Shown: positions 41,680 through 63,787 of the stretch, piece after piece | Numbering within the stretch: the first letter of the stretch is position 1 | Layout of the letters: each line of letters opens with the position of its first letter | Source: Escherichia coli | Lineage (GTDB): Bacteria > Pseudomonadota > Gammaproteobacteria > Enterobacterales > Enterobacteriaceae | Direction: 5' to 3' (one strand) | DNA length: 64,000 nucleotides | Assembly (NCBI RefSeq): GCF_024298765.1 | Contig: NZ_CP101210.1 | Notes under the pieces: model-generated | Database searches by the model: none | Told to the model about the DNA's origin: nothing | What the model saw: only the letters and a program-made list of their open reading frames with translations | Translations under genes and position numbers: made by a program

Positions 41680-41845
41680 TTTTCCCTCTGCATACTGTTT
41701 TGTCTTTTCATCAATATACGTTAAGGATACCACTACCGATGACGGTGAGGGAGTAGAGTAATCAATCAGTTTTAGTGAATGGAGGAAATAATGACATATA
41801 ACAATTATTCATATGGTATTTAAAAAAACTCAATATGAAATTTAA

Positions 41846-42343
41846 TTATTTAATGTTCAATAACTCTATGGCTTTAGTATATTCATCAGGAATACCAATT
41901 GTAAAACAAGGTGCGGTATCGGTAGGTAGATTTTCTTTGTTATCATCATCCAGAACAGAAATAGAAAATTGTCGTTCAGGTGTTGATGTCGTGGTTATTA
42001 AAATGGTTGGATTAGGAAGAGAAACATATGTTGTATCATTTTTTAGTTTTATTTCTTTGATGTTTTCTTTGTTAATTTTATCAATCGTTTCAATAGAGAA
42101 AAAAGAATCATACCCCATTCGCAGTTCAATTTTATTATCGTTTTCGAATAAATAAATGGCATTATTGTTTTGAAGCAGATTGAATATATTGTTAGCGCAA
42201 GTTTGAGTTGCTAGCCAGGATGCCGCTGGATGACTCAAATTAATATGCGTGCTAAAGACTTTGACGCGACTACTTCTGTTTTTCTCTTTACTTTCAATTA
42301 AATGCCTAGCGCTTTTGGCTGCTTTACAAGTTCCATGCCCCAC
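41846..42343 (-). CDS. hypothetical protein (AT-rich orphan ORF; possible N-terminal membrane anchor)
   Basis: 165-aa ORF from GTG; in-frame upstream codons encode a hydrophobic stretch (IVIIKLIGTIFSVVIGVILIVSIL) with no canonical start before a stop. Confidence 0.35.
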   Translation of the reverse strand: MGHGTCKAAKSARHLIESKEKNRSSRVKVFSTHINLSHPAASWLATQTCANNIFNLLQNNNAIYLFENDNKIELRMGYDSFFSIETIDKINKENIKEIKLKNDTTYVSLPNPTILITTTSTPERQFSISVLDDDNKENLPTDTAPCFTIGIPDEYTKAIELLNIK

Positions 42344-42784
42344 ACGGCAAAAATAATCTCCTGAAAGGATACTTACAATCAGTATTACACCAATGACGAC
42401 AGAAAAAATAGTTCCGATGAGTTTGATGATGACAATCCTTGTGCAGTGTTATTTTCACCATGGATTATAATGTTATAGTGAAATTATTGCGCATGTAATT
42501 TTTCTTTGATTGTTTTAACATCACATTTATGCACTTCTTCATCTTTGTAGCAGGTAAAAGCCATATATGGATGGCTGGTGTCCGGTGCAGATAAAATGCA
42601 ACTTATTCTTGATAGCTTGAAAAAAAGAGAGGTTTTTTTGAGTGACGGTTGATAGTCGGTGGCAAGGAAGACGTTTTCGTACACTCGGCAAGAAAAACGA
42701 ATCACTCTGTCATACTACCAGATACATCAGCAGGGTCAGGTTGCTCAGAAATAAGCAGGATGGGGATCACTGAAGAGGCATTTT

Positions 42785-49470: not shown

Positions 49471-50355
49471 TCAGAACAGACGCTCCCACAGTGTGATCAG
49501 CAGGTGGATAATGCGGTCCCGGGCTTTACGCAGAAGCTGTAACATCCAGGCCGGAAAACTGAACCGGGCAACGGCGTCGTCAAAACTTTTCCCGATGGCA
49601 TCACCAAAAGTCTGTTGTGCGTGTTTCCGGGCCTGTTCAGAGCGGTTTTCCCCCCTGATATGTGAATAAACTGCGCTGGTTGCCTGTGGTGGCAGCGCGT
49701 GGATCATCAGTGACACCAGCGCTGGAAGGTTCCAGCCTGCAGGTGCGGCTACAGGGAGTACCGGAAATGATGAAGGGAACAGGGTGGCCACCCGGGCTGT
49801 TACTGTCGCCAGTGAGAGTTCCTGGTGACGGGACGGGCATTTTTCTGTGGCATTCCATTCTTCAGCAGGAAACATGCGATCGGCATGGCTGAGAACAAAC
49901 AGAAAGCGCGAGGGATCTGCGCCCTCATTCAGTAAAAACTGATGCATGGCAATATCGGCAGCATACGCACGTTCATCACTCCGCAGGATCCAGATAATCA
50001 GATCCAGTTCCGGCAGTAACTGACGATAAAGCGCTCGGTATTCCTGATCATGCTGCGGTGTTTCACCAATGCCGGGCAGATCGACCAGCGTCATTCTGCG
50101 TTCACCGAGCTGCAGGGTAAGACGATGAGCCTGGCGGGTGCAGCCGTTCAGGGGATGCGTGGCGCAGATACGGGACTGAAAAATGGCATTACACAGGCTG
50201 CTCTTGCCGGTGCCGGATTTACCCATAATGCCAATCACGGGCTCGTAATGAATAACACCGTGGAGATGTTCAAGGATTTTCTGGCGTATTTCTTCAGGAA
50301 GAAACGTCAGATATGATTTCACTTGCGCGGAGAGGGAAGAATTGCTGAATGGCAT
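49471..50355 (-). CDS. GTPase (YfjP/YkfA/YeeP family)
   Basis: 294 aa; P-loop GKSGTGKSS, DLPG switch, ribosome-associated GTPase-like. Confidence 0.8.
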   Translation of the reverse strand: MPFSNSSLSAQVKSYLTFLPEEIRQKILEHLHGVIHYEPVIGIMGKSGTGKSSLCNAIFQSRICATHPLNGCTRQAHRLTLQLGERRMTLVDLPGIGETPQHDQEYRALYRQLLPELDLIIWILRSDERAYAADIAMHQFLLNEGADPSRFLFVLSHADRMFPAEEWNATEKCPSRHQELSLATVTARVATLFPSSFPVLPVAAPAGWNLPALVSLMIHALPPQATSAVYSHIRGENRSEQARKHAQQTFGDAIGKSFDDAVARFSFPAWMLQLLRKARDRIIHLLITLWERLF

Positions 50356-50455
50356 ACCGGTATCCTGTTGATTTCACTGAACCGGATCACACTAATCCGG
50401 TTTATCATTCAGGTAATATGGGTGTGAAAATTTTTCCATTGACGGGAAGAAGAGT

Positions 50456-51679
50456 ATGGCTAAAAACAAAGGTATTTGTCGGAATAAAAAATGCAGTAAT
50501 CCTGTTTCAGAATTTGATGAGGCAAATGCCTTAAGGTTATGCGATGATCATTATAAGCTATGGAAGCGAAATAAAGAGAATCGTCGGGTCAGGAATATTT
50601 GTCGTATAATCAGTAAATATGACAAAAGTCTGGACCGGGAGATATTTTATGGAGTAAGAGATGCTGCAAAAAATAAAACGGGAAAGAGAATTATTGAGGA
50701 CGCAAAAATATTACATCAATGCCGTGCCTCAAAGCAAGTAAGAAAAAGTTTTCACAAGGGTGTGCTTCGGTCACGGGAATGGCTTAATACACAGGAGTTA
50801 CTGAGCAGAAAACATATATCTGTTACAGGTGAACTATTTAAATTTTACATAAAAGATATTATCAGATTATATTGCTATAAGTTTCTCTACAGCAGAGAAT
50901 ATCTTAATGAAAACGCATACAAAAAACGATATCAGAGTGATATTCACCCCAGAAAAGTTAATGTTCCGATACTGCAACTTGAAGTTGCATGGATAAATAA
51001 TAATTGCCGTTCAAGTGATTCAAGCACTGATATTATTATCCTTCCGAGGATGATAAGAAGAATGGTTGTATTTAATTATACGAAGATAAATAAACAATTA
51101 GAGAAATTGTTAGGGGGGATAGCACGAAAACAAACCTCAGAAAGGAATAAAGGCGGTCTCTATACCAGAATAAAAAAAGAAAGTGACTTTCTTTCTATGG
51201 ATAGATTTATGGTGGAAATAGAAAATATCATAAGGCCTGAAAGGTTTCCGACATCAATTTATCCAGTCTTTTCACATTCATTTATTGAACGAGAGCTTCC
51301 GCTACTGAATCTTGCTCGATCACAGTATAAAAGAGCAATAAGTAAAAAAGTGGCGAATTCAATTTTTTATACTTTGCAAAAAACTAACGTAGCATTATGG
51401 CTACATCTTGAAATGTTTGCTCTGGTGGCATTCATTAAACTGTATACAGGAAAAGGTTTTGAATTCATAAAAAACATGTGTGCATTTATCGATTATAATA
51501 ATGGGATAATAAAATCCACACATGAAGAACTACTGGGTGAAATTAAGCATAACATTCAGGTTAATTTGAAGGTGAACCCTGATAATTTTCCTGAGCTAAT
51601 AAATATATACAATTCATGTTTTAGTAAAAATATATTTTTATATGATATTAATGATGGTAATTTTAAATGGTGTTCATGA
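50456..51679 (+). CDS. hypothetical protein, Lys-rich with N-terminal Cys/His cluster (candidate novel defense/abortive-infection gene)
   Basis: 407-aa ORF; purine-rich RBS; very AT-rich codon usage; C8-x4-C13...C29-x2-H32; divergent from GTPase gene. Confidence 0.6.
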   Translation: MAKNKGICRNKKCSNPVSEFDEANALRLCDDHYKLWKRNKENRRVRNICRIISKYDKSLDREIFYGVRDAAKNKTGKRIIEDAKILHQCRASKQVRKSFHKGVLRSREWLNTQELLSRKHISVTGELFKFYIKDIIRLYCYKFLYSREYLNENAYKKRYQSDIHPRKVNVPILQLEVAWINNNCRSSDSSTDIIILPRMIRRMVVFNYTKINKQLEKLLGGIARKQTSERNKGGLYTRIKKESDFLSMDRFMVEIENIIRPERFPTSIYPVFSHSFIERELPLLNLARSQYKRAISKKVANSIFYTLQKTNVALWLHLEMFALVAFIKLYTGKGFEFIKNMCAFIDYNNGIIKSTHEELLGEIKHNIQVNLKVNPDNFPELINIYNSCFSKNIFLYDINDGNFKWCS

Positions 51680-51978
51680 TTCTAAAATAGCAAATTCATA
51701 TTGCATATTAATTATCAACAAAAAACACATAATAAAATTTCAATAAGTTACCTGCTAATGGTGCTGATGATCCGCCAGTTTAGTATGGTTATATGATTTG
51801 ATGGTTAATGCTTACAGATAATCACACTTTCTTATGAATAGTATAAATGAGCATGCCATAGTCGTTTGTTCAGAGATAAAATTTACTGAATGAGCTTATG
51901 TTGTGGTTATCTGTACTTACCGGATACGACGACTTATATTCCTCACATTATATGGCTTAACTTTTCTGGGGTAAAGCG

Positions 51979-52044
51979 ATGGAGTTACAGACGCTGATTA
52001 CGATGGTTTACTGTCTCGTTATCACGGGATTTCTGCTGTACTGA
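51979..52044 (+). CDS. putative 21-aa hydrophobic mini-protein (speculative)
   Basis: ORF MELQTLITMVYCLVITGFLLY preceded by GGGGTAAAGCG; could be chance in AT-rich DNA. Confidence 0.2.
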   Translation: MELQTLITMVYCLVITGFLLY

Positions 52045-52184
52045 ATACGTGAACAGGAAAATAACTCCAGAGTAAATCTGCTCTGTTTTTAGGACAGAAA
52101 ACTCCATGCTGGCTGTAAAAGTGAAAAATTAACACCCAGTATGTATGGAAGTCTGAAGATGTTGAGAATGTCGGTATGATACTA

Positions 52185-52330
52185 TATACACGTATTTTAC
52201 TAAGTATTTTTACTAAGCATTTCAGTAAGTGTTATACACGTATTTTCTACTAAGTGTTTTACCAGACATACACGTATTTTCATAAACACTTCTACAAGTG
52301 TTTTCGTTAAGCATTGCTATACACATCCAG
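52185..52330. repeat. tandem imperfect direct repeats (ATACACGTATTTT ... ACTAAGTnTTTT)
   Basis: tatacacgtatttt at 52185 and 52233, catacacgtatttt at 52267, gctatacacatcc at 52317; each followed by actaagt/acaagt then a T-run. Confidence 0.5.
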
Positions 52331-52842
52331 TTTAGTAAATCTTTACGTTAACTAAATCAGTTTAATGCTGCTGTAAAACCTTTCTGTTTAAGCAATCAAT
52401 CTGCTATTCGATTTTACTGATGTTACGTTTAACCTTTCCTTAGATTTCGAGTTTCGACGTTAGCTTGAGAAAAGTATCTTTACGTAAAGCCCAGTGAATT
52501 AACTCAAATCCGATTGAGGTAACCTGATGCGATTTACTGTGAGTTTGCGATAACACTGTTAAATGGCTTATGGATGATTTTGTAACGGCGAGATTGATAA
52601 GGTGATTAACTGGCCCTGGTGTTTTTTCTCAGCGTAAGGTGATTATCTTCATCATAAGGCTCTTTTCAGAAAAAGTGTGATGATTGGTTGTGGTGTTTTG
52701 ATTCAGATGAGGATCTGCCAATGATTATGATGTATTGTAAGAAATAACGCCTTCAGAATGTTGGAGCATGCACTTACACAAACTGTTTTTCTAAAATTAA
52801 GGGAACAGTTTAAAGAGTATAAACTGTTCATCTTCTTCAGGA

Positions 52843-53373
52843 TTAAGCTACATTGTTGTTATGACTGACAGGATTGTTTTCTTCCCCTGACTCTGGGCTT
52901 AACAGTCCCTGGCGTTGTAGATATTCACTGACTGACATTCCAGAACTACGGATCCTGTCAGAGATTTTACGAAATTGATCCTTCCATTCTGCAGGTAATT
53001 TCTTAATTTGTCTGACTTTACAGGCTACACTGTACGGGGTTCGCCCTAGTTTCTCTGCCAGCCAGAAAAGGTGTTTACCAATTTCATCGTCCGGTACATC
53101 CTCCAGAACATCTCGCAATAAACTCTCGTCTGCCTCATTCCATGCCACACCAGCATTTGGGAAACGAGGATCGATCTCTCTTTCCTTCTTCTCCTTCTTA
53201 CTTTGCTCTTTTCGGGATGATACAGATACGACAGAACGTTCTTTTACCGCTGTAATTGCCATAACTGCATTGAGCAGAGATCTGCGCTCCACATCGTTCA
53301 GCATTTTTCCTTCACAGATCAAATCATTCAGGATGTCAATGACTAGATTCAGACTTTCTTCTGTTAGCTTCAT
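52843..53373 (-). CDS. hypothetical protein with putative HTH
   Basis: 176-aa ORF; AAGG RBS 8 nt upstream; charged KE-rich linker; HTH-like LAEKLGRTPYSVACKVRQIKK. Confidence 0.55.
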   Translation of the reverse strand: MKLTEESLNLVIDILNDLICEGKMLNDVERRSLLNAVMAITAVKERSVVSVSSRKEQSKKEKKEREIDPRFPNAGVAWNEADESLLRDVLEDVPDDEIGKHLFWLAEKLGRTPYSVACKVRQIKKLPAEWKDQFRKISDRIRSSGMSVSEYLQRQGLLSPESGEENNPVSHNNNVA

Positions 53374-53987
53374 ATTTCAGACCTTGAAGTATGTAGATAA
53401 TCAGCACAATTACTAATGTGATAAATATCAGAAGATAATTTACAGGTAAACCGGAAAATACATCTGAAGAATAAAGGCCTCAGCTTAACGTTTCAGCCAG
53501 TTTGTGAGCTGATTGAGGTACGGCGATGACATTAACGGGAATTACTCCCCTATAGCTCTGAGCTTATTTTTCACCCTGGCAACATATGGTGGCTACTGCG
53601 CATGGTTTTGGAGTAGATATCTTACTACTCGTAGAATTGTGCTTACTGGTCAGGCCAGCGCACAGGCATTCCGTGCAATCAATAGAACACTGGTTTTTTA
53701 GTCTTCCGTTACCCATCAGGATGTTAGTGCAGATTCCGGTGTATTCGATCAGTTGTTCGGCGAATCAGCGATCGATCACGATGCGATTTCGTATGTTAGG
53801 GATGCTGGTATGATTACTCGCTGAAAAATAATGTGAAAAGGCAGTTTTTCTTTAGACATTTAGCTCATTCATGCTGTTGTTTTACGTTTTGCTGTCGTGT
53901 GCAGGATTATCTTTTCGTTACGGGACGATTCATTCCGTTTTAATCAGGAGCTATTGGCGTTGCTCATTGGTGGGATGCCGTAAAGTT

Positions 53988-54035
53988 TTACCGCGGCGAT
54001 TAATGATGTGAAGTCAATCCAAATCAACGGAGATC
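53988..54035. repeat. conserved leader element (copy 1) shared with 62702-62744
   Basis: ttaccgcggcgattaatgatgtgaagtcaatccaaatcaacggagatc versus ttaccgccttgcttaatgatgtgaactgaagtcaacggagatc. Confidence 0.55.
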
Positions 54036-54042
54036 TCTCATC

Positions 54043-54774
54043 ATGAATCAACCAATACACAATGATTACTGGTTATCCCGTTTTGAAAGTATTCTCAACA
54101 GTGCCCTGGTGCAACACCGTGCCGTCTCGTTAATCCGGGTGGATTTACGTTTCCCTGAGCATATGCCTGTCACCATCATGGATCCCGATCCGGATTCAGC
54201 GGTGATTTCTCGTTTTTTCGAATCCCTGAAAGCCAAAATTCAGGCTTACCAGCGGAAAAAACGACGTACCAACAAGCGTGTGCGTGCAACCACCCTGCAT
54301 TATTTCTGGTGTCGAGAGTTTGGCAAGGAAAAAGGCAGGAAACATTATCACGTGATATTACTGCTCAACAAAGATACCTGGTGCTCGCCAGGGGATTTCA
54401 CCGTTCCTTCTTCGCTGGCGACGCTGATCCAACTGGCATGGTGTAGCGCTCTGCATCTTGAGCCCTGGCAGGGTAATGGACTGGTTCATTTTTCCAGGCG
54501 GACGCCTTTCCGTAAACCGGCATCATCTGATGCTCGCCCTTCTTCCGATGATACGCCTTTGTCGGGTGGATGTTCTGAAACCAGGAAGGCTTCAGACAAA
54601 AAGCCGGGTGAAGCCGCTGTTCTCTGGATCAAGCGTGGTGATGTGGAAGCGATGCAGAAAGCCATGGAGAGAGCCCGTTATCTCGTGAAGTATGAGACGA
54701 AGCAGCATGACGGTTCTGGTCAACGTAATTATGGTTGCAGCCGTGGAGCGGGGCGTCTACTGGATGGCAGGTGA
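54043..54774 (+). CDS. inovirus Gp2-like replication-associated protein (YagK/YfjJ family)
   Basis: 243 aa; HYHVILLL motif region; family assignment from memory. Confidence 0.65.
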   Translation: MNQPIHNDYWLSRFESILNSALVQHRAVSLIRVDLRFPEHMPVTIMDPDPDSAVISRFFESLKAKIQAYQRKKRRTNKRVRATTLHYFWCREFGKEKGRKHYHVILLLNKDTWCSPGDFTVPSSLATLIQLAWCSALHLEPWQGNGLVHFSRRTPFRKPASSDARPSSDDTPLSGGCSETRKASDKKPGEAAVLWIKRGDVEAMQKAMERARYLVKYETKQHDGSGQRNYGCSRGAGRLLDGR

Positions 54775-62085: not shown

Positions 62086-62652
62086 ATGCCTAAATCTTAC
62101 ACACCAAACTGGTTTTTTACCGCTTTACTTGACAATCACATCAATCAAATGATGGCACGCTATTCCTGCCTGCGGGCCTTACGGATGGATTTCTTCTACA
62201 GGAAGGATACGCCTGATTTCTTACAACCTGATCATCGTTGGCTTGAATTACAACTGCGTATGCTGCTGGAGCAGGTTGAACAGTTTGAAAATATGGTTGG
62301 CTTCTTCTGGGTGATTGAATGGACGGTTGATCATGGTTTTCATGCGCATGTGGTCTTCTGGCTCGATCGTCAGAGGGTTAAAAAAATATATCCCTTTGCG
62401 GAGCGGATTACGGAATGCTGGCGGTCTATTACGCATAACAGCGGTTCGGCACACCGCTGTACATATCAGCCGCATTATACATACAACATCAACATTCCTG
62501 TGCGCCACAACGATCCTGAAAGCATCGATAATATTCGCGGTGCCCTGCATTATCTGGCAAAAGAAGAGCAAAAAGACGGGCTGTGTGCCTACGGCTGCAA
62601 TGAAGTTCCTGAACGTCCTGCTGCAGGGCGTCCTCGTAAGCCTCACTTCTGA
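62086..62652 (+). CDS. inovirus Gp2-like protein (YagK/YfjJ family paralogue)
   Basis: 188 aa; FHAHVVFWLDRQ motif region analogous to HYHVILLLNKD of the 54043 gene. Confidence 0.6.
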   Translation: MPKSYTPNWFFTALLDNHINQMMARYSCLRALRMDFFYRKDTPDFLQPDHRWLELQLRMLLEQVEQFENMVGFFWVIEWTVDHGFHAHVVFWLDRQRVKKIYPFAERITECWRSITHNSGSAHRCTYQPHYTYNINIPVRHNDPESIDNIRGALHYLAKEEQKDGLCAYGCNEVPERPAAGRPRKPHF

Positions 62653-62701
62653 AGCTTAAATCCTGAGCTTCCTGTCCTGGAAACATTCCGTCGGTAAAAC
62701 C

Positions 62702-62744
62702 TTACCGCCTTGCTTAATGATGTGAACTGAAGTCAACGGAGATC
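62702..62744. repeat. conserved leader element (copy 2)
   Basis: See copy 1 at 53988-54035. Confidence 0.55.
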
Positions 62745-62909
62745 ATTCACTCTGAACCACATCCGGTGTTCTGTCCCTTGTCGGTGACCTGATCTTCCCG
62801 TTCTGCCCCGGTTCTTCACTTATTCCATCAACCCCATCCGCAAACCATAACACGTCAGCTTATTCACGGGCAGGACGCATTGTGGGCTGCGCATAACGGA
62901 GCATATCTT

Positions 62910-63482
62910 ATGAATGCTATCCCTTATTTCGACTATAGCCTGGCCCCCTTCTGGCCATCTTATCAGAACAAAATCATCGGCGTTCTCAACCGTGTGTTGC
63001 GCGAGCAGTCCTGCTCCCGAATACGGCGGATCCTGCTTCGTCTGCCGGGGGAACATGGCAACATCTTCAGCGACAGAAAAACCTGGTTCGGTATGGCCTT
63101 TATCGAAACCGTCAGTGCGCTGATGAATGCAACACCCGGACGTGACCTCTGCTGGCTCCTGACACGTCATCCTGAAAAACCGGAATACCACGTGGTGCTG
63201 TGCGTCAGACAGGAGTATTTCGACGGCCCTGAACTGGATCGGCTGATTCTGGATGCCTGGAGCAACGTACTGGGCTTCGCATCACCGGGTGAAGCAGCAC
63301 CGTACCAGAAGCAGATCACCCGGGATGTGGTGCTGGACAGTTGTTCACCGGACTGCGAAGAGAGACTCAAAGAGCTGATATGGGCGTTCAGTGATTTCGC
63401 CCGCGATCGTCGTGGTGTGCGCGATCCGGAAGCCCGTTACCTCGCCGGTAATCCCTGGTATCCCGTAGCAGGCCAGCTCTGA
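62910..63482 (+). CDS. hypothetical protein, possible third Gp2-like paralogue
   Basis: 190 aa from MNAIPYFDYS; GGAG RBS; EYHVVLCVRQEYF motif. Confidence 0.5.
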   Translation: MNAIPYFDYSLAPFWPSYQNKIIGVLNRVLREQSCSRIRRILLRLPGEHGNIFSDRKTWFGMAFIETVSALMNATPGRDLCWLLTRHPEKPEYHVVLCVRQEYFDGPELDRLILDAWSNVLGFASPGEAAPYQKQITRDVVLDSCSPDCEERLKELIWAFSDFARDRRGVRDPEARYLAGNPWYPVAGQL

Positions 63483-63550
63483 AAGCTCAGCTCAGCAGAT
63501 TCACCCGCATTTGCCCAACATTCATAAATCTCACAGAGGACATTCTGACC

Positions 63551-63787
63551 ATGTTGACCTCAATGACAGGTCACGACAGCGTATTGCTGCGTGCCGACGA
63601 TCCCCTGATCGACATGAACTACATCACCAGCTTCACTGGTATGACCGACAAATGGTTTTACAAGCTGATCAGTGAAGGCCATTTCCCTAAACCCATCAAA
63701 CTGGGGCGCAGCAGCCGCTGGTACAAAAGTGAAGTGGAGCAGTGGATGCAGCATCGAATCGAGGCATCACGAGGGGCAGCAGCATGA
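63551..63787 (+). CDS. AlpA-family prophage regulatory protein (excisionase-like HTH)
   Basis: 78 aa; ...ITSFTGMTDKWFYKLISEGHFPKPIKLGRSSRWYKSEVEQWM resembles AlpA/Xis-type HTH. Confidence 0.7.
   Translation: MLTSMTGHDSVLLRADDPLIDMNYITSFTGMTDKWFYKLISEGHFPKPIKLGRSSRWYKSEVEQWMQHRIEASRGAAA

Follow-up and report, generated by a model that had tools for sequence, protein, structure and literature searches.

A 64,000-nucleotide (nt) stretch of Escherichia coli DNA (assembly GCF_024298765.1, contig NZ_CP101210.1), hereafter the window, carries at 50456-51679 on the plus strand a gene for a protein of 407 amino acids (aa), WP_001107214.1. Gene and product are here called X. X is the type member of an uncharacterised family that is restricted to the Enterobacterales, and its gene is a fixed backbone gene of common CP4-57-like genomic islands, not fresh cargo. 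It is also a cassette-like allele behind a shared promoter. The slot that it occupies holds ancient allele classes of 407, 376 and 316 aa, about 16% identical, which are exchanged by recombination. The N-terminus of X bears a conserved putative zinc knuckle, and we tentatively propose, with low confidence, that the protein is a candidate nucleic-acid-binding regulatory or specificity factor of the island.

The reading frame begins with ATG, comprises 407 codons and ends in a single stop, with none internal. RefSeq carries it as an intact 'hypothetical protein'; the call also draws on the list of open reading frames (ORFs), substitution rates, homologues and an AF2 model. The purine-rich stretch GGGAAGAAGAG lies 5´ of the ATG. 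The protein, of about 48 kDa, contains 10.3% Lys and 7.9% Arg and has a pI of 9.76; residues 1-300 are strongly basic (pI about 10), and the last 107 residues are mildly acidic. The GC content of the gene is 32.5% (27% at third codon positions, GC3), compared with 53.8% (GC3 55%) in the adjoining YfjP/YeeP-type GTPase gene, which lies divergently on the minus strand at 49471-50355, across a 100-bp gap. The first-pass annotation of the window, made from the sequence alone, had described an intact frame with a purine-rich ribosome-binding site, a Lys-rich product, a far higher AT content than the neighbour and a divergent orientation to the GTPase gene, and these points all hold.

The interval 50356-53500 matches many complete E. 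coli chromosomes at 100% identity. X was found at 1,068 places in 975 of the 5,426 complete E. coli genomes searched and is full length in 967 of the 975 carriers, which speaks against its being a pseudogene in related genomes, a finding that would have refuted the first-pass annotation. Two E. coli alleles give a ratio of non-synonymous to synonymous substitution rates (dN/dS) of 0.24, and comparisons between genera give about 0.2-0.3; X is thus a real gene on which purifying selection acts. The alternative that X is a spurious or decaying frame without current function, in AT-rich DNA gained horizontally, might be suspected from the AT-richness, from the lack of a known domain and from the label 'hypothetical' in every source. 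However, the near-universal full length, the dN/dS of 0.2-0.3 within and between genera, the conserved motifs, a confident AF2 model obtained from only 15 sequences and a conserved promoter motif run contrary to it, and the selection and conservation data effectively exclude it. Compared with the allele of locus L005, X is 96.7% identical and the GTPase gene 94.4%. Codons 301-407 (51356-51679) contain 4-5 times more differences from L005:16901-17224 than the rest of the gene. This excess is equal at synonymous and non-synonymous sites, with a pN/pS of about 0.25 in both regions, which points to a recombination mosaic inside the gene, and positive selection on the C-terminal quarter was rejected on this ground. 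Accelerated evolution is absent within the 407-aa allele class.

The putative zinc knuckle is encoded by codons 8-33 (50477-50554, plus strand) and was delineated with the alignment and the AF2 model. It comprises Cys8, Cys13, Cys29 and His32, followed by Tyr33, in the sequence CRNKKCSNPVSEFDEANALRLCDDHY, with a ligand spacing of C-x4-C-x15-C-x2-H. The four ligands are invariant in a 15-sequence alignment that reaches down to 23% identity. In the homologue P0021 (L009:8587-9984), the Cys/His knuckle is present twice, in tandem, at the N-terminus. The invariance and the duplication together indicate a conserved feature, not a chance arrangement, and the tandem copy indicates that the knuckle is an independent module. 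The AF2 model of X was built from the 15-sequence alignment (pLDDT 78.9, pTM 0.68) and replaced a poorer run with nine sequences (pLDDT 55). In this model, Cys8 and Cys13 sit on a hairpin, between bridge residues 7 and 16 as assigned by DSSP, and Cys29 and His32 are located at the start of a long basic helix of residues 30-55; the pLDDT of the knuckle is about 83-86. The predicted layout is the arrangement of a putative treble-clef-type zinc knuckle, so that the zinc-binding cluster proposed in the first-pass annotation from the same four residues stands as plausible.

Beyond the knuckle, the model contains a Lys-rich helical linker of low confidence (about residues 56-100) and then a body (residues 100-407) that is mainly helical and has a few short strands. 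Further residues invariant among the 15 sequences are Arg27, Trp109, Leu138, Tyr139, Arg147, Glu176, Val177, Pro197, Tyr236, Leu281, Pro282, Leu286, Arg293, Glu319, Tyr385, Asn386 and Phe389. Addition of the two other E. coli slot alleles reduces the invariant set to Trp109, Pro197, Tyr236, Pro282 and Leu286, whereas the zinc ligands, Arg27, Tyr139, Val177, Arg293, Glu319, Tyr385, Asn386 and Phe389 are nearly invariant across the superfamily. The fully invariant residues are aromatic, Pro or Leu, a pattern that is structural and not catalytic; it speaks against X being a nuclease or an NTPase and favours a binding or scaffold protein over an enzyme.

Domain, profile and fold searches returned nothing that would place X in a known family, which agrees with the earlier statement that no further family motif was recognisable; a confident match to a known non-defence family, the outcome that would have told against the first-pass annotation, did not appear. 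X has no match in Pfam, NCBIfam, PADLOC or PHROGs. Pfam gave no match for any of the 15 aligned members, even at E <= 10, and nothing significant was obtained with NCBIfam, PHROGs and PADLOC for the other slot alleles and the isolated knuckle. A profile search of the PDB with the X family gave 0 matches at E <= 10, and no known fold matched the X model. The 60-aa knuckle searched against the PDB hit a helix of RBBP4 alone, which lacks the Cys/His residues and was rejected as coincidental. No Walker, TOPRIM, AEP or HUH motif and no conserved acidic cluster was found in the family. A P-loop NTPase was discarded: Pfam and NCBIfam give no match, and the Walker A-like segment AKNKTGKR (residues 71-78) lacks the S/T residue and is not conserved.

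An exhaustive HMMER scan of 1.84 billion cluster representatives yielded only 25 matches, about a dozen of them full-length clusters, and word-indexed searches returned the same small set, all named 'hypothetical protein'. Homologues with 22-37% identity were found in Citrobacter, Klebsiella, Atlantibacter and unclassified Enterobacteriaceae, and structure-level relatives (15-29% identity) in Salmonella, Enterobacter, Lelliottia, Serratia and Providencia. The family was seen only in the Enterobacterales, in about eight genera. Only three X loci were found among 100,044 species-representative genomes, and tblastn of plasmid and phage collections gave no X match. In the literature, no paper names the accessions, and nothing was found on the gene in the X slot. 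One locus, L017 (CACSKA010000007.1), is labelled Chryseobacterium sp. 18061; it has the layout of L016 (Enterobacteriaceae bacterium RIT691), nearly the same coordinates and tblastn identities, and a GC content of 47%. The Chryseobacterium label probably reflects a contaminated or mis-assigned assembly.

Several database labels attached to relatives of X were examined and rejected. The UniRef label 'Reverse transcriptase' on the Klebsiella homologue P0016 has no Pfam hit in the 15 members and no conserved YxDD motif behind it, and NCBI names the same sequence 'hypothetical protein'. Some relatives in AFDB are automatically named HNH endonuclease. The sole trace of such a domain is PHROG 1271 ('HNH endonuclease') at an E value of 0.72 on the knuckle of P0038; there is no significant match in Pfam, NCBIfam or PHROGs, no invariant His/Asn/His and no fold match. 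The zinc knuckles associated with HNH endonucleases, which are the source of the 'HNH endonuclease' labels that some distant relatives bear in UniProt, have a pattern similar to that of X, Cys...Cys...(R/G)LC-x2-HY, but X lacks an HNH/His-Me catalytic domain. The relatives A0AAX3CP38, A0AAW5Z6I9 and A0AAU7N7V1 likewise carry one or other of these two labels with no domain, motif or fold backing.

The low GC content is an old and stable trait of the family. All members examined are 32-37% GC (the 316-aa allele is 43%), and the adjoining GTPase genes are 49-59% GC. The trait holds across proteins that have diverged to 16-37% identity and extends to Citrobacter, Klebsiella, Atlantibacter and other genera. 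Since every homologue is equally AT-rich, the recent acquisition that the first-pass annotation read from the AT-richness is unsupported relative to the island backbone. The persistence of low GC suggests selection, and H-NS-type silencing might possibly lie behind it.

X is embedded in a large, mosaic island that abuts yicL. The GTPase gene, identified by annotation and by NCBIfam and PADLOC scans, is the first gene of a divergent backbone operon on the minus strand, in the order GTPase, WYL regulator, DUF905, DUF932, antirestriction, RadC/JAB, DUF987, CbeA, CbtA and DUF4942. The opposite flank runs from X through an ORF-free stretch of 1.16 kb and a 176-aa gene to an Inovirus Gp2 / YagK-YfjJ family gene, after which come IS2, ireA and more IS elements. 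The Gp2/YfjJ gene (54043-54774, plus strand), which is rolling-circle Rep-like according to annotation and PHROG replication-initiator matches, closes the slot region, and it is about 90% identical between islands with different slot alleles.

This synteny is fixed in 13 distinct contexts from at least six genera; across divergent elements and hosts, X keeps its position relative to the backbone genes. X and the GTPase gene are divergent and 83-106 bp apart in the window and in loci L005, L002, L003, L007, L008, L009/L010 and L018. Among these divergent cases are the homologues from Citrobacter, Klebsiella and Atlantibacter and those on three contigs of metagenomic or draft origin, in which alpA lies within 320-430 bp of X and is followed by a YagK/YfjJ-Rep-like gene. 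Outside E. coli, X is therefore the first gene ahead of alpA and yfjJ, in the same direction, and alpA and/or YfjJ-Gp2 follow X in all loci that extend far enough. In L006, a 22%-identical homologue is co-directional with the GTPase gene and upstream of it. In L016 and L017, the GTPase gene is gone between the WYL gene and X (L016:5336-6000), and X, alpA and yfjJ are kept. No remnant of a degraded alpA was found in the 1.16-kb gap 3´ of X in the window. In L009, the P0021 gene is followed by a 1.6-kb ORF-free stretch before the YagK/YfjJ gene, as in the window.

The cargo of these islands lies elsewhere. Beyond the Gp2/YfjJ gene, it consists of ireA and IS elements in the window, with hlyE and fec further on from ireA, of a type I restriction-modification (R-M) system in L003, and of restriction endonucleases in L012-L014. 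The same module occupies a second chromosomal site in other E. coli strains, with other cargo after the Gp2 gene. X thus belongs to a fixed backbone slot and does not have the status of cargo that had been implied for it. Pseudomonas islands at tmRNA sites belong to the same integrative island backbone class; they combine a core of integrase, AlpA, RadC and an inovirus Gp2-like gene with defence cargo and are transduced by a jumbo phage (PMC12595487). Unlike in the window island, no X homologue is described in them (PMC12595487); the X family was seen in the Enterobacterales only.

The slot is filled even where X is missing. The GTPase gene, at about 85% nucleotide identity or more, is present at 2,503 places in 1,870 of the complete E. 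coli genomes. In E. coli islands without X, the X position holds a hypothetical protein of 376 aa (512 places) or 316 aa (812 places). The three alleles sum to 2,392 places, roughly all of the GTPase copies, with the adjacency verified in the sampled loci only. In those loci, the occupants of the slot in sister islands are remote homologues of X and not unrelated genes. The alignment of the 376-aa allele to the X family spans the whole protein (hhalign 98.6%, E 9e-16, 16% identity), and this allele keeps both the knuckle (CVRKNC...RLCRKHY) and the C-terminal LYNSFF motif. The 316-aa allele aligns over the core only (hhalign 94%, E 1e-7) and does not have the knuckle.

Comparison of the window with L012, L013 and L014 by blastn delimits an allele-specific cassette at 50431-52040 (plus strand), which contains X with about 25 nt of leader before it and some 360 nt of flank on its 3´ side. 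Islands with different alleles are about 94-95% identical in DNA sequence through the GTPase operon and the control region, up to 50430. Homology to the islands with the 376-aa or 316-aa allele is lost after this position and returns at about 52041-52057. Beyond the cassette, identity is 77-84% over 52041-52711, is lost over the 176-aa gene and is about 90% from 53866 through the Gp2 gene.

That alleles so divergent share one slot is also consistent with frequency-dependent selection, a point in favour of the main rival to a regulatory role, in which X is a single-gene anti-phage protein of the abortive-infection (Abi) type. The target of the knuckle and basic region would then be phage nucleic acid or a phage protein, and the alleles would owe their deep divergence to differences in phage specificity. 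Many Abi genes encode AT-rich, basic, domain-less proteins, and defence cargo is near in the form of the type I R-M system of L003 and the restriction endonucleases of L012-L014. In K-12 CP4-57 (L015, 2761351-2767355), the yfjJ-yfjP interval holds the anti-phage genes abpB, abpA and rnlAB, a defence content that favours this rival, together with yfjM, and no X-family gene. RnlA and AbpAB thus share with X a comparable location beside a YfjP-type GTPase gene, but they are unrelated cargo, and the X slot is always filled by one superfamily, unlike defence hotspots, in which unrelated systems alternate; the variable cargo lies past the Gp2 gene. The gene orders also differ, with yfjJ and yfjP co-directional in K-12 and the Gp2/YfjJ module inverted relative to the GTPase operon in the window island type. 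X is unrelated to RnlA; homology to this toxin was rejected at an hhalign probability of 0.07%. No homology was found between X and K-12 YfjH and YfjI. At E <= 1, none of the families in PADLOC-DB 2.0 matched X, the two cassette neighbours or any of six other members of the X family. X also has neither conserved catalytic residues nor the fold or motif of a nuclease, an NTPase, a HEPN protein or another effector, and all of this goes against the defence role implied in the first-pass annotation. In addition, the pN/pS of about 0.25 is not accompanied by a hypervariable patch, and the C-terminal excess is equally synonymous. We regard an anti-phage function as unlikely on this evidence.

The 100-bp region between X and the GTPase operon (50356-50455) is a divergent control region, which was analysed in an alignment of seven loci. 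The heptamer GTAATAT at 50413-50419, about 37 nt upstream of the X start, is invariant in the seven loci. Its TAATAT resembles a -10 element for X, and the minus strand gives TATATT / CATATT. L016, which lacks the GTPase gene, keeps the promoter motif AGTAATATAG about 35 nt ahead of X, and L017 keeps it too; its retention in L016 assigns the motif at least to the X promoter. The region also contains an inverted repeat, CCGGAT-N7-ATCCGG, at 50382-50400 (minus strand; arms 50382-50387 and 50395-50400), which was characterised by alignment and RNAalifold. The arms co-vary between genera (CCTGGC/GCCAGG, GCCGG/CCGGC, ATGCCG/CGGCAT), and RNAalifold predicts eight pairs, five with compensatory changes, together with several broken cells. 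These partially supportive data suggest that the repeat could form a hairpin in the leader mRNA of the GTPase operon or, alternatively, would act as an operator.

The tight linkage of X to this operon through a shared bidirectional control region, together with its allelic diversity, would also fit an establishment or anti-defence factor. X would then work with the adjoining leading-region-like operon, which includes ArdB/KlcA-type antirestriction, RadC/JAB and DUF932 genes, and would have diversified against host defences. Against this, X has no similarity to any known anti-defence protein, the two loci without the GTPase gene still keep X, alpA and yfjJ, and the genes of the operon stay at about 94% identity regardless of the X allele beside them, with no co-variation. 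An anti-defence role is therefore considered highly improbable.

In the regulatory or specificity role that we tentatively favour, the knuckle and the basic helix would bind DNA or RNA in or near the shared control region, and the divergent helical body would give each allele class its own partner or signal specificity. X would thereby help to set the expression of the alpA-rep excision/replication module, the GTPase operon or both, and the low GC would probably keep X and the divergent promoters under H-NS-type silencing. The basis for this proposal is the conserved zinc-ligand pattern with its backing from the model and its duplication in P0021, the basic composition, the non-catalytic character of the superfamily-invariant residues, the fixed synteny and the invariant promoter motif, which survives the loss of the GTPase gene. 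We also count the sharp cassette boundaries at 50430 and about 52041, the homologous slot occupants, the universal low GC, the match of the three-allele places to the GTPase places, the position of X ahead of alpA/yfjJ outside E. coli, and the retention of the same knuckle and the same control region by the 407-aa and 376-aa alleles.

A number of observations weigh against this proposal. Domain searches found no HTH or other established DNA-binding domain in X, and 48 kDa is large for a simple regulator. The 316-aa allele does without the knuckle, so that the knuckle is dispensable for this allele or the allele is degenerate. There is no sign of positive selection in X, with a pN/pS of about 0.25 throughout, and the comparable interval of K-12 CP4-57 carries the defence cargo AbpAB and RnlAB. 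Allele-specific DNA repeats that co-vary with the protein were not found. The one candidate in the 3´ flank of X, an inverted repeat at 51813-51915, has an RNA fold z-score of only -2.3, is not conserved in the 97% allele and was rejected, and the other alleles are not flanked by analogous repeats.

The closest proposed functional parallels to X are SaPI Stl and lambdoid CI. These are allelic master or immunity repressors that bind operators in a control region, repress the excision and replication genes and are relieved by a specific inducer. Like them, X has a fixed position at the divergent control region of its element, exists as deeply divergent alleles that are swapped as cassettes between near-identical elements, and combines a conserved N-terminal nucleic-acid-binding module (putative in X) with a divergent body. 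However, X lacks an HTH and has no sequence or fold similarity to either protein, and it is co-directional with alpA-rep, not opposed to it. The likeness would be one of function only and is drawn from position and allelic diversity. P2 Ogr and P4 Delta are likewise Cys-based zinc-binding regulators (putative for X) of enterobacterial elements and share the C-x4-C pair, but they are 70-170 aa long with the pattern C-x2-C-x22-C-x4-C, compared with 407 aa and C-x4-C-x15-C-x2-H in X. Membership of the Ogr/Delta family was rejected on the different ligand pattern and on the null Pfam result at E <= 10, which covered Ogr_Delta.

A bolder form of the regulatory proposal, which we consider doubtful, is that the X superfamily is an unrecognised class of allelic zinc-knuckle sensor-regulators with a new fold that time the switch-on of alpA-Rep and of the GTPase/antirestriction/CbtA genes in CP4-57-like islands. 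Each allele class would answer a different trigger, for example a protein of a helper phage. No less novel would be a new immunity factor that consists of a single protein, with alleles that define phage specificities.

Downstream of the cassette, the ORF-free, AT-rich segment at 52041-52711, which is conserved at 77-84% identity across islands with different alleles, carries between one and three copies of a repeat that spans about 45-50 bp around ATACACGTATTTT(C)A. Three copies are present in the window, at 52183-52311. Rfam gave no match on 50200-54100. These iteron-like repeats might serve as an origin, an oriT or a regulatory array. The succession in E. coli of X, this conserved segment and a Gp2-family gene raises another role for X, as a DNA-processing accessory in replication, mobilisation or packaging specificity that acts on the repeat segment or with the Gp2/YfjJ Rep-like protein. 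Zinc knuckles are common in primases and initiators, and the cassette neighbours give marginal matches to NikA-like (E 0.025) and RepA-regulatory (E 0.027) families. These matches are not significant, however, and are on other proteins. None of the loci outside E. coli has the repeat segment, and alpA there follows within 320-430 bp of X; the same segment is common to islands whose X alleles are only 16% identical. Together with the lack of Walker, TOPRIM, AEP and HUH motifs and of a conserved acidic cluster, these results make a DNA-processing role quite improbable.

The 176-aa gene (WP_000778605.1; 52843-53373, minus strand) is called a 'DNA-binding protein' in some sources. The marginal NikA-like RHH match (E 0.025) is its only Pfam trace, and its HTH-type PHROG matches are weak. 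In E. coli it was found at 720 places, compared with 1,068 for X, and at nearly all of them its identity is at least 99%. It lies in its own variable cassette (52712-53865), which in other islands holds 262-aa and 83-aa genes or nothing, and neither the loci outside E. coli nor the islands with other X alleles contain it. The 176-aa gene is thus a separate, recently spread cassette and not an obligate partner of X, and these distributions do not support the partnership that the first-pass annotation envisaged.

Other features of the window lie outside the X region. A second backbone-like module (62086-63787) is located beyond the IS/ireA block and comprises a YagK/YfjJ-like gene (62086-62652), a 200-aa ORF (62880-63482) and an AlpA-like HTH gene (63551-63787) that is 73% identical to Citrobacter AlpA. 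At the left island edge, beside yicL, a sharp low-GC block (30-38%) at 41750-42750 contains a hypothetical gene of 165 aa (41846-42343, minus strand). No tRNA gene was found in 38000-64000, which means that the tRNA that provides the attachment site must lie at the opposite end of the island.

The X sequences were already in databases as hypothetical proteins. What is new is the definition of the family and superfamily, the conserved putative zinc module, the lack of a known fold and the organisation as allelic cassettes in a fixed slot, and the readings 'recent acquisition', 'HNH endonuclease' and 'reverse transcriptase' are refuted. The low GC of X characterises the whole family and does not signal recent transfer. 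In E. coli and its relatives, few accessory elements are commoner than islands with this type of backbone, which are present in about a third of E. coli genomes. They carry virulence and fitness cargo, toxin-antitoxin modules and defence genes. The gene divergent from the GTPase operon marks an always-occupied slot and provides a testable candidate for a control or specificity factor of these islands.

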